Below, piece after piece: positions 30,977-34,782 of a DNA stretch of 64,000 bases. The stretch lies in NCBI GenBank assembly GCA_010015805.1, contig ML978139.1, forward strand, positions 1-64,000. The letters run 5' to 3'. The notes under the pieces were generated by a model that did not search any database, had not been told where the DNA came from, and saw only the letters and a list, made by a program, of their open reading frames with translations. Each line of letters starts with the position of its first letter. Within the stretch, counting starts at the first letter, position 1. A program made the position numbers and the translations under genes. The DNA is from Rhizodiscina lignyota. Taxonomy: Eukaryota.

Positions 30977-32546
30977 ATGGATCATCCTTTTCAATGCCTC
31001 CGGGCTCGTGATGACCATGTGCTGTTCGCAGCATGCGGATCGAATATCTATTCGGTTTCATTGACAGATGGAAGTATTATTTCGAAATGGCCTACTTGTG
31101 ACCCTCCAACACCCAAGGATGAAAAAGAGCCTCCGGGAAAACACAGAAAACTAGACTCAAATAGCACCACACCACCTGCAAATGTCACTATTCTCACTCT
31201 CGCCAGCGAGCGGCAACACTTGGTCGCTGTGACTGCAGAAGACAAGTACGTCCACGTATTCGAAATCAGCCAGGATGGGCAATTGTCCCACATCAGCCAG
31301 AGGCAAGTTTTATGCATTCGAATTGTGACACAATTTCGCTAATTGAAATCAGATGTATGCCGAAGCGCCCTTCATCAATTGTGGTGACTTCAGATGATAG
31401 TTCTATTCTCGTAGCAGACAAGTTCGGCGATGTTTATTCCTTGCCTCTTCTCCCTGCTCATGAGCAGGAGCCGAGTGTGCCTACATCCGTGGAAGAGCAA
31501 GAAAAGCAGGCACCAAAGACGTACAAGCCAGCCGCTACGTCTTTGACAGTTCACTCTGCACGCAATCTTCGCGCTCTGGAACAGCAAATGAAGCGTGTCA
31601 ATGAACCAGCTAAGATCAAAGAACCTCTAAAATTCGCCCATAAGCTGCTCCTGGGTCACGTCTCGATGGTCACAGATGTGCTGTTCGCAAGTGTATCACA
31701 CGGCCTAGGGAAGAGGGAGTACATTATCACGGCTGATCGCGATGAGCACATTCGCGTGTCTCGAAGGCCACCCTCCCAGGCTCACATCATCGAGGGCTAC
31801 TGTCTCGGACATAAGAGCTTCGTAAGCAAGCTCTGCATGGTGACGCCGCAATTGCTGGTCTCAGGAGGCGGTGATGACTATCTCTACGTCTGGAAGTGGC
31901 AAGATTTTCAGTTGCGGAGGAAAGTCAGTATTCGTGAGTGGTATCAGAAAGTGGTACAGGAGAGATCTGTTAGCAACGGAGTAGTCGGGCCCTCGAGTGA
32001 TGTCAGGAATGCTCCCTTGACTGTGTCTGGTTTGTGGACAGTGTCTAATGTACCGGATGAGCATGTGAGTATTGCCCCTGAAAAATACGCGTTGAGCATG
32101 TCATTGACATATACTAGACGCACTTGGTGGTCGCTTTGGAGGGGTTTCCGGCGCTCATGTGTTTCACTGTTGCTCAACTTGAAGACCAGGTCGGCGATAT
32201 CGACATCAAAACGATGTATACGCCTGGCAACGTTTTGGATGTCGCCAACTTGGGAGATACCTTGCTGATCTCCGTTGACAACTTGCATGCTCCTGGCTCA
32301 ACGGAGAATTCTCCGTCAAATGATGCACAATTCGACAAATCAAGGCGCATGTTGGCCATGACGTTGCCTATTAGCGATAACAAAGAGACGGAAGTACTCG
32401 ATACTGAGAAGATGGACGAAATACTCAAGGGGGCCTCGGAATCGATCAAGGCACCTACGGAAGCAAAGGCAGTACAAGAACTTCTGTACGGACTGGGTCA
32501 TTTGAGAAAGCGTGGAGGTGAAGACGGCGCTGAAGAACCGGCATGA
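30977..32546 (+). CDS. TRM82: tRNA (guanine-N7)-methyltransferase non-catalytic WD40 subunit Trm82, 3 exons
   Basis: R|CMPKRPS, ADKFGDVYSLPL, LLLGHVSMVTD, ITADRDEHIRVSR, IEGYCLGH and SGGGDD. Introns at 31303-31352 (GC-AG) and 32065-32117. Confidence 0.93.
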
Positions 32547-33495
32547 GCATGTAGGCGAGATGAAGCATCTTCAAATTGCCCCCACCGAGGATCGTGACAC
32601 TCGAAGTCGACGGAGCACGGAATGCAAGGTCATGCAGGCGGATCGCGACCATACGATTGGAAAGCGATGATGCAGCTACCTACTCCAGGAGGAATGGAGA
32701 TGGCCCAGGACATTGGATCATGTAACACATCGTACAGTGAGTGCGGCCCGCACTGAGACATGGCCCAGAGTGGCGACGAAGAGGCCGAAGCGAGCAATTG
32801 ATTGTCGCCTGTAGATAAAATTAACAAAATTCCACTCTGAATCAATAACTCAGACCGTTGCTGTTGCATGCACCAAGTGCAGGAACGCGCAGCGGCCCGT
32901 GTATAGATAAAAGCAACGATAGAACGGTCGTGCAACGGCTTGAGAAGGTGAAGCTTCGGGACTTGACGTGATGGGCGCGCCGCGACCGGCCTATTTTGCG
33001 CAGTGACCTAGCCGACTGTGCAGTGTTAGAAATCAACCTCGACAAACAGCAAAACGACCACCATCGCATCATCCAAACTGCCTCGGGCCCCTAAGACCAC
33101 CTCTAGAACCGTCCAGCGCATGTCATAATCTCCAACTCCCGCGTTTCTTTCACATCAGCCTCAGCCCCGTATATTCAATTCCTCCCCTCTCCAGCTGTAC
33201 GGGTATTCCTAATATTCTTTGCCCTTTCTGTCACCCGGACTGCACCCTCGCGCCGGCCCTCCGTTGAAGCCAGATAAATATCCTCACACCGACTGAACTT
33301 CACCACACAAGCAATCACCTATCGACCGTCAAACTGTTCTCTACCGCCTTCCGTCGTGCAGGCTTTCGTCCCCTCCGATCCTCCCTCAGTCTGCCCATTG
33401 CGGCCGCGGCAACTCTCCACAACTCGAACCGCGCTTCCTCTGGCCTTTCGGCCATTTCCACACCTCTTCAGGGCTCGCTTGGAGCAAAAAGGACG

Positions 33496-34782
33496 ATGCA
33501 CTCAAAGCTAGTCAGTATGTATACCTCTCGTCTCGCTTCGTGTGCAATCTCAACTAAATGTAATAGTTATCGGATCAGGGCCTGCAGGCCACACAGCGGC
33601 TATCTATGCTGCGCGTGCTGACCTAAAACGTAAGTTACTGCAGCATAAATAATCGTCTAGTCATGAGCTAACAAGTTGTAGCTGTCATGTACGAGGGTTT
33701 CCTCGCGCTTGGCATAGCGGCAGGCGGCCAATTAACGACCACCGATGAGGTCGAGAACTTCCCCGGATTCTCCAAGATTCAAGGCGCGACACTGATGGTG
33801 AGTTCCGAGATCAGCGCTCTAAAGATGATCGAAACTAATGAAATTCTTTTATTCAGGACCAAATGCGGGCCCAGTCTGAAGCCGCCGGTACCGAAATCGT
33901 CACCCAAACAGTTGCAAAAGTCGACCTGAAATCAAGACCGTTCAAATACTGGCTGCACCCAATGGGCGATGATGAGACGATTGAGGACGAAGAGCCGCAC
34001 ACCGCCGACGCCATAATCATCGCCACGGGCGCAAAAGCCCGCAGATTAAACCTCCCCGGCGAAGACAAATACTGGGGCAATGGGGTGAGCGCGTGTGCTG
34101 TGTGCGACGGCTCGCTCCCCATGTTCCGAGACAGGCCGCTCGTAGTTATCGGAGGTGGAGATTCGGCGGTCGAGGAGGCGATATACCTGACTAAGAAGGC
34201 GAGCAAAGTATACGTCCTGGTGCGGAGGGACAAGCTGCGAGCGAGCAAGACGAACGCGAAGAGATTGACGACAAATAAGAAGGTGGAGATCAAGTACAAG
34301 TCTGTCGGCGTCGAGATTAAGGGAGAGAAGAAGGATAGAGGGTTGATGACGCATCTGCGGGTTAGGAACGTTGAGACAAAGAAAGAGGAGGACTTACCCG
34401 CCAATGGCCTGTTCTATGCGGTTGGCCACGAGCCGGCAACGTCGTTGTTCAAGGGTCAGCTCGAGATGGACGAGGATGGCTATCTTATTGTCGATCCTGG
34501 CAGAGCTTTAACAAACATCGAAGGCGTCTTTGCTGCTGGCGATGTGGCGGACAAGCGATATAGGCAGGCTATCACTAGCGCAGGTGAGTTTGATGTCCTC
34601 AATTTTGTTTTAGGACATTACTAACATTATTAGGCTCTGGATGCATAGCAGCGCTTGAAGCCGAGAAGTGGCTAGCCGAGCAAGACTCCAGCGTCGAGAA
34701 CGAGCTCGAGCTCGAGAACCAGGCCGAGAAGTCGCAAGTCAACGGCGTTGTCCCCGAGTACAGGTCAAACCCACTGTTGTAA
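33496..34782 (+). CDS. TRR1: Thioredoxin reductase (low-molecular-weight type), 5 exons
   Basis: [46 protein letters not shown] redox motif, [28 protein letters not shown] and C-terminal YRSNPLL. Introns at ~33515-33565, 33629-33681, 33798-33856 and 34584-34633. Confidence 0.97.

Follow-up and report, generated by a model that had tools for sequence, protein, structure and literature searches.

In a 64,000-nucleotide (nt) stretch of the Rhizodiscina lignyota genome (contig ML978139.1 of assembly GCA_010015805.1, positions 1 to 64,000, forward strand; hereafter the window), the thioredoxin reductase (TrxR) gene is preceded by an open leader whose first codon, a CTG at 33334, is conserved among relatives as CTG or GTG together with its context. 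ATGs are absent from the leader, selection of the coding type runs from this codon onward, and the leader is contained in spliced RNA of a relative. These comparisons indicate, with a probability that we put at about 0.75, that one TrxR gene supplies both a cytosolic and a mitochondrial isoform through a CUG start and leaky scanning. Judged from the comparative evidence, translation of the leader is real and well supported, and from it we infer that ribosomes initiate at the CUG, how they divide between the two starts, that the long product is imported and where it is cleaved.

The proposed mechanism involves a single thioredoxin reductase gene, one mRNA and two proteins. Scanning ribosomes would encounter no AUG within the leader; a minority would initiate at the CUG at 33334 in its strong, conserved context (CCGUCAAA-CUG-UU) and produce a precursor of 411 residues, the first 54 of which form a basic presequence, and the remaining ribosomes would scan to the AUG at 33496 and produce the 357-residue cytosolic enzyme. 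The presequence would direct import into mitochondria, where a processing peptidase would cut after the residue that follows a conserved Arg, directly before Met, such that the mature mitochondrial enzyme would be the same as the cytosolic one. TrxR inside mitochondria would then keep mitochondrial thioredoxin reduced. The elements of the leader are as follows, with the type of evidence in parentheses.

33265..33267, + strand: TGA stop in frame with the leader, marking the upstream limit of its open frame (sequence reading).
33326..33333, + strand: initiation context CCGTCAAA (−8 to −1; A at −3), conserved except at −5 (17 distinct leader DNAs).
33334..33336, + strand: CTG, proposed near-cognate start of the long isoform (aligned codon always CTG or GTG).
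33334..33495, + strand: 54-codon N-terminal extension, proposed mitochondrial presequence (codon-periodic substitution, ratio of non-synonymous to synonymous substitution rates (dN/dS), charge and protein conservation).
33334..33384, + strand: basic N-terminal block, residues 1–17 with 4 Arg, including F-S-T-A-F at 33337–33351; conservation within the leader is highest here (alignments).
33385..33411, + strand: conserved L-x-L-P-I-A-A-A-A segment (alignments).
33490..33495, + strand: Arg-Thr directly before Met, candidate R-2 cleavage site (basic residue at −2 in 61/61 proteins).

A first-pass annotation, made from the sequence of the window, had proposed a CUG-initiated mitochondrial presequence on this gene, and on direct reading each of its statements about the sequence holds. 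Downstream of the TGA at 33265 no further stop interrupts the frame between 33268 and 33495, and no in-frame ATG occurs there. The CTG lies in frame with the ATG at 33496, 162 nt (54 codons) upstream of it, in the context ACC GTC AAA CTG TTC with A at −3, which includes the GTC-AAA-CTG-T described in that annotation. The claim that no ATG occurs in any frame between the CTG and 33496 can be extended, as the + strand is ATG-free from 33121 to 33495; across 32701–33520, ATGs are found only at 32720, 32760, 32868, 32971, 33120, 33496 and 33517. Our translation of the 54 residues is identical to the one proposed and contains 6 Arg, 1 Lys, 10 Ser, 9 Ala and neither Asp nor Glu, giving a net charge of +7 (with Leu read at the CTG). 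The ATG nearest upstream of the leader is that at 33120 (ATG TCA TAA). We rejected this ATG and the one at 32971 as leader starts, as they open short reading frames of 2 and 11 codons (33120–33128 and 32971–33006, respectively), neither of which reaches the leader. These short upstream open reading frames (ORFs) would be relevant only if transcription begins that far upstream.

We assessed the distribution of the leader among fungal proteins by successive searches. A word-based search with the leader and exon 1 recovered one protein, P0001, whose frame runs through a 51%-identical leader. phmmer with P0001 gave 8726 matches at E ≤ 0.001, and further TrxR fragments with ORFs running through the leader were present among the best 150 of these. 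The resulting nine-protein alignment (A1) showed a block beginning K-L-F-S, an Ala-rich segment and an invariant Arg at position −2 of Met, and in a profile search with A1 that scored 8000 proteins, 61 reached E ≤ 1. Leader-bearing sources included Aureobasidium pullulans, Hortaea werneckii, two Lachnellula species, Neurospora intermedia (P0178), Thermothelomyces, Fusarium, Claviceps, Cordyceps, Tolypocladium, Sporothrix and Hypoxylon, representing Dothideomycetes, Leotiomycetes and Sordariomycetes (class confirmed for three of the named sources). The initial block was detected by pattern in 40 of the 61 proteins, where its first residue was Leu in 35 and Val in 5 and the preceding residue was Lys in 36; these counts are approximate, as one of the 40, P0011, was mis-matched by the pattern and its true block also starts K-L-F-S.

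At the DNA level, metagenome contigs were scanned with the alignment of the window and P0001 leaders, and 22 loci were kept from 434 pattern matches after confirmation with tblastn, which together with the window make 23 sequences with 17 distinct leader DNAs. At the position of the CTG at 33334, 11 of these sequences have CTG and 12 have GTG, and no other Leu or Val codon occurred there; elsewhere within the 17 distinct leaders just 10 of 106 Leu and Val codons were NTG. Only two columns of the codon alignment were consistently near-cognate or ATG, namely that of the CTG at 33334 and that of the main ATG. We therefore dropped as candidate starts the further near-cognate codons that lie in frame (ATA 33274, ATC 33280, CTG 33391, ATT 33397, ATT 33454, AGG 33490 and ACG 33493), none of which falls in a column that is consistently near-cognate among the 17 leaders. 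Positions −8 to −1 read CCG[C/T]CAAA in all 17 leaders, with −5 as the sole variable site (C in 14, T in 3), and +4/+5 after the start codon were TT in 17/17. Upstream of −9 conservation collapses, with the commonest base held by 6–13 of the 17 sequences.

The leaders are also depleted in ATGs. Over 2661 nt in the 17 leaders we counted 0 ATGs in any frame, where 22.8 would be expected and none of 1000 shuffles had fewer than 10, and none lay between the two starts in any of the 23 sequences. The main ATG had A at −3 in 23/23, and no in-frame Met was present upstream in the 22 loci. Neither stops nor frameshifts interrupt the orthologous leaders, as the frame between the near-cognate codon and the AUG was open in 22/22 loci passing the tblastn check, which itself favours open and similar frames. 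Among the protein models, that of Cordyceps sp. from NCBI (P0179) has Met exactly at the Leu/Val start position (protein model only). At the same position P0175 has Thr, for which ACG is a possible codon (protein level only), and P0003, P0015, P0153 and P0180 carry an in-frame Met a few residues inside the leader, which suggests that the identity of the start may have switched several times.

Substitution patterns within and upstream of the leader were compared across 10 close, non-independent pairs, using the 120 nt upstream of the NTG start codon as reference. Mismatches in the leader were distributed 41/21/140 over codon positions one to three, and the only indel was 18 nt long and in frame. 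In the upstream 120 nt, mismatches were distributed 99/104/81, identity was mostly 68–79%, and indels of 1, 4, 5 and 7 nt occurred, such that the frame is broken upstream of the NTG. Leader dN/dS ranged from 0.08 to 0.20 (Nei-Gojobori method, unsaturated close pairs). The Arg at −2 of Met was encoded by AGG, CGC, AGA, CGA and CGG across the DNA loci, and this use of five synonymous codons indicates selection on the amino acid. Taken together, third-position substitutions, the indel pattern, dN/dS and the Arg codons place the onset of the coding signature at the NTG; coding-type selection therefore begins at this codon, in the sense frame, which runs on into TrxR. We set aside two ORFs on the opposite strand of the leader (33315–33467 and 33319–33501), as the observed pattern would make codon position one the most variable in the exactly complementary antisense frame. 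An RNA hairpin downstream of the CTG that would aid non-AUG initiation was dropped as well, since RNAalifold predicted 0 conserved pairs 3′ of the CTG among 13 sequences and the fold of the window sequence had z = −1.2. Over longer distances, leader dN was approximately 2–4 times that of the mature enzyme; presequences usually evolve faster, with higher dN, than the enzymes that carry them. The mature ORF of one contig, L010, spans 416 codons compared to 356 in L017, and the 3′ part of L010 may contain either an unspliced intron or a frameshift, an anomaly that probably inflates mature-region dN in the L010/L017 pair.

Contig L010 (1562 nt) also provides transcript evidence for the leader. Aligned to the genomic contigs L014/L015, it forms four blocks of 99.7–100% identity from which three introns have been removed, indicating that it derives from spliced RNA of the same organism. 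Its 5′ end lies 128 nt upstream of its GTG, with an in-frame stop at nt 30–32 and no ATG before the main one, so that the leader could be translated in that organism only from a non-AUG codon. Contig L017 also lacks introns at sites where relatives of 90–96% identity have them. Contigs L002, L003, L005, L008 and L009 are probably also derived from spliced RNA, as introns are missing compared to near-identical genomic contigs; L003 extends 2139 nt upstream of its CTG and may represent read-through or a merged assembly.

The encoded peptides share features with matrix presequences. Net charge of the leaders ranged from +4 to +7, acidic residues were absent from the first 30 positions in 17/17, and the window leader places four Arg within its first 15 residues. 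Directly after the start, 16 of the 17 leaders have F-x-x-[A/I/L]-F (by-eye alignment count), which may represent a TOM20-type motif. The residue at −2 of Met was Arg in 56, Lys in 4 and His in 1 of the 61 leader-bearing proteins. Matrix processing peptidase sites that follow the R-2 rule have Arg two residues before the cleavage, and Arg-Thr|Met is accordingly a candidate site at which we infer cutting by this peptidase. The Thr codon before Met also provides the A at −3 of the ATG at 33496. A Pfam scan of the 60-residue leader detected no family, and a protein atlas search for leader look-alikes gave no usable match.

Several observations weigh against a dual-targeted enzyme or reduce the force of the counts above. 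Taken alone, the leader in the window is within chance, and its significance comes from the relatives: shuffling its 162 nt left no in-frame stop in 1635 of 5000 cases and no ATG in 1422 of 5000 (28%), and acidic residues are scarce in the other two sense frames as well. The set of relatives was ascertained in part for the properties of interest, because the 22 loci were chosen by tblastn similarity to the leader, favouring open and similar frames, and one of the two search patterns held Arg before MHSKLV, which partly ascertains the Arg at −2. Many loci are near-duplicates, and the 17 distinct DNAs correspond to approximately eight groups (by-eye reading of the alignment), such that pair counts are not independent. 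No RNA run was listed for Rhizodiscina lignyota, and the transcript evidence stems from a relative. No Eurotiomycete (Aspergillus, Penicillium) was among the 61 profile matches, where the leader may be absent, too diverged or unannotated. Amphipathicity of the peptide is marginal, with a maximum 11-residue hydrophobic moment of 0.74 that was matched by 118 of 2000 shuffles and an 18-residue moment matched by 442 of 2000. In the one GFP report found, on Fusarium graminearum, FgTRR-GFP under its native promoter showed uniform cytoplasmic fluorescence, with no mitochondrial pattern noted (PMC6416177). A large primary pool is described as concealing a minor one (Monteuuis et al. 2019, PMC6582344), and a minor mitochondrial pool could have been masked in the FgTRR-GFP experiment. 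Overall, the near-cognate start and leaky scanning put forward in the first-pass annotation are supported by the relatives, and the mitochondrial destination, to which composition, the basic residue at −2 and biological context point, is probable but unproven.

Among alternative explanations, it is unlikely that the extension, translated from CTG or GTG, serves as something other than a matrix presequence, such as a signal for the intermembrane space through its Ala-rich segment, a signal for another compartment, or a regulatory or degradation tag. The L-P-I-A-A-A-A segment is indeed hydrophobic and strongly conserved, marginal amphipathicity would fit such a role, and yeast Trr1 is called mitochondrial in the literature, and a review places cytosolic redox components in the intermembrane space (PMC5601281). 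However, four Arg in the first 15 residues, the lack of acidic residues in the first 30 (17/17) and the basic residue at −2 (61/61) fit a cleaved matrix presequence. The hydrophobic run of about 9–11 residues is short for a stop-transfer signal, and the yeast partner proteins Trx3 and Prx1 are matrix proteins. A further explanation invokes two transcripts, a long mRNA with the CTG and a short one starting downstream for the cytosolic form, with little leaky scanning. Alternative transcription starts commonly underlie dual targeting, and isoforms are described as sometimes arising in this way (Wallace et al. 2020, PMC7049704), yet leaders that are ATG-free in all three frames in 23/23 sequences are required by leaky scanning and needless with a separate short mRNA, and the main ATG has A at −3 throughout. 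We consider this arrangement distinctly improbable, and since it still requires a non-AUG start on the long mRNA, it would modify the mechanism rather than replace it.

The remaining alternatives dispense with a near-cognate start. An upstream ATG exon, or a fusion to the upstream gene, could be spliced into the leader, and public models do fuse TrxR to VPS53-like or PF00107 genes in Claviceps, Fusarium, Neurospora intermedia and others, and in Aureobasidium pullulans the models take as their start an ATG that lies in the same frame, 16 codons 5′ of the leader start (P0155). The fusion partners differ between orders, however, which makes them look like prediction artefacts; the invariant block at −8 to −1 contains no AG acceptor; 5′ of the NTG, codon periodicity is absent and indels break the frame; and the 128 nt that precede the GTG in L010 match the genome colinearly and include an in-frame stop, as does the window leader with its TGA at 33265. 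Splicing into the leader is thus very improbable. Finally, the leader could be a 5′ untranslated region (UTR) conserved as a regulatory RNA or DNA element, given that the window alone is compatible with chance and that fungal UTRs are generally depleted in ATGs. The 41/21/140 distribution of substitutions, dN/dS of 0.08–0.20, indels only in multiples of three, five Arg codons at −2 and the lack of conserved RNA structure leave almost no room for this view.

The public gene models themselves bear traces of the leader. VPS53-like TrxR fusions were found in Hypocreales and Hortaea (P0161, P0163, P0164, P0167, P0173, P0197 and P0198) and fusions to the zinc-dehydrogenase family (PF00107) in Sordariales (P0178, P0186–P0189, P0191, P0192, P0194 and P0200), and the TrxR models P0177, P0183 and P0184 are flagged 'partial'. 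Such fused or partial models are apparently prediction artefacts of an open leader without ATG. For annotation, the conserved CCGCCAAA-[C/G]TG motif could serve as a rule that marks the leader start. If the dual-isoform reading is true, the two isoforms would be alike in size and annotation based on ATG would be blind to the longer one. TrxR is studied as a virulence or stress factor in several fungi, and knock-outs may mix cytosolic and mitochondrial defects.

Near-cognate codons initiate mitochondrial isoforms of single-copy aminoacyl-tRNA synthetases in yeast, where ALA1 and GRS1 are the known examples. Those cases, and the Cryptococcus synthetases described below, have ribosome-profiling or genetic proof, whereas the TrxR leader belongs to a redox enzyme and is known from comparison alone. 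Mitochondrial low-Mr (low relative molecular mass) TrxR arises through an N-terminal presequence in Saccharomyces cerevisiae, from the separate gene TRR2, and in plants, from alternative AUGs of NTRA/NTRB; these systems use AUG starts, by gene duplication or by two AUGs, in contrast to the near-cognate codon proposed here. Conserved near-cognate extensions in Neurospora are reportedly listed in Wei et al. 2013. No published account of a non-AUG presequence on TrxR in filamentous fungi was found in our literature search, which did not extend to Wei et al. 2013 or to the supplementary material of Monteuuis 2019 and Wallace 2020. The mechanism, in which a near-cognate start and leaky scanning give a mitochondrial isoform, is already known, and TrxR of filamentous fungi would add a new case.

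The closest parallel in the same enzyme family is yeast Trr1, in which initiation further upstream, at a non-AUG codon, lengthens the protein and brings a predicted mitochondrial signal, and which was among 18 proteins picked for strong 'MTS gain' (MTS, mitochondrial targeting signal) and one of four of these already described as mitochondrial, according to Monteuuis et al. 2019 (PMC6582344). Unlike yeast, which has the separate mitochondrial gene TRR2, these fungi appear to have a single gene, and codon, context and peptide are conserved here across three classes of Pezizomycotina. ArgRS and LeuRS of Cryptococcus, as described by Wallace et al. 2020 (PMC7049704), combine a single gene, an upstream near-cognate codon in strong context, a presequence and leaky scanning, as proposed here. 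The same paper describes repeated swaps between weak AUG and near-cognate codons, to which CTG and GTG, and possibly ATG in Cordyceps sp., would correspond in our alignment. Within the same clade (Pezizomycotina), cpc-1 of Neurospora crassa has conserved near-cognate codons in good context and shows purifying selection in the frame of its N-terminal extension, although that extension measures approximately 180 residues, could start at any of several candidate codons and serves regulation, not organelle targeting (Ivanov et al. 2017, PMC5487733). Near-cognate use is reported there to rise as start-codon stringency falls. We speculate that stress could tune the share of TrxR sent to mitochondria, because the proposed start is a near-cognate codon and would be used more at lower stringency.

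A conserved presequence would also bear on a gap described for Neurospora. The text of bioRxiv 10.1101/2025.04.24.650474 that deals with these enzymes reports one thioredoxin reductase (TR) gene in N. crassa with "no N-terminal peptide signal", together with a mitochondrial peroxiredoxin and a TRX3 for which a mitochondrial signal of 35 residues is predicted, and states that Neurospora "seems to lack a mitochondrial TR", which would stop TR from reducing TRX3. The leader is present in the Neurospora intermedia protein P0178, and if the dual-isoform reading is true, a conserved non-AUG presequence on the same gene family would resolve this gap. We find it reasonably probable that a CUG/GUG presequence conserved in at least Dothideomycetes, Sordariomycetes and Leotiomycetes makes the single TrxR gene of these fungi the source of the "missing" mitochondrial TrxR, with Arg-x|Met cleavage regenerating the cytosolic protein.

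The gene downstream of the leader is modelled as a low-Mr thioredoxin reductase of the TRR1 type with five exons and 357 amino acids. Exon 4 (242 amino acids) matched TIGR01292 with 258 bits (E = 6.1e-77), a score that falls short of the 343-bit cut-off only because this one exon was scanned alone, and it matched the pyridine nucleotide-disulphide oxidoreductase fold PF07992 with E = 3.7e-38. In the spliced model the CAVC redox centre is located at residue 146, and exon 2 encodes the N-terminal GSGPAG site, which binds flavin adenine dinucleotide (FAD). Introns of the model are 50–59 nt long with GT...AG ends. The exons and a candidate promoter are located as follows.

33170..33245, + strand: candidate core promoter, a TATATT box followed by a pyrimidine-rich tract (read from sequence only).
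33496..33514, + strand: exon 1, beginning with the canonical ATG of the cytosolic isoform and comprising the codons for MHSKLV and one further nt (sequence reading; gene model).
33567..33629, + strand: exon 2, FAD-binding GSGPAG region (gene model; spliced relatives).
33682..33797, + strand: exon 3 (gene model).
33857..34583, + strand: exon 4, CAVC redox centre and nicotinamide adenine dinucleotide phosphate (NADPH) site (gene model, TIGR01292 and PF07992).
34634..34782, + strand: exon 5 with the TAA stop (gene model).

The TATATT box and pyrimidine-rich tract at 33170..33245 are a possible core promoter, which would put the transcript start upstream of the CTG. At the other end of the gene, the C-terminal tail of TrxR (34634–34779 in the window) is acidic and probably disordered; Neurospora TR is likewise described with a C-terminal extension of unknown function (bioRxiv 10.1101/2025.04.24.650474, in its account of that protein). 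Upstream, the 3′ end of the neighbouring gene (32118–32546, + strand; last residues including LLYG..LRKRG) resembles the part preceding the leader in the fused Aureobasidium sp. model P0157, which suggests that gene order is shared with Aureobasidium.

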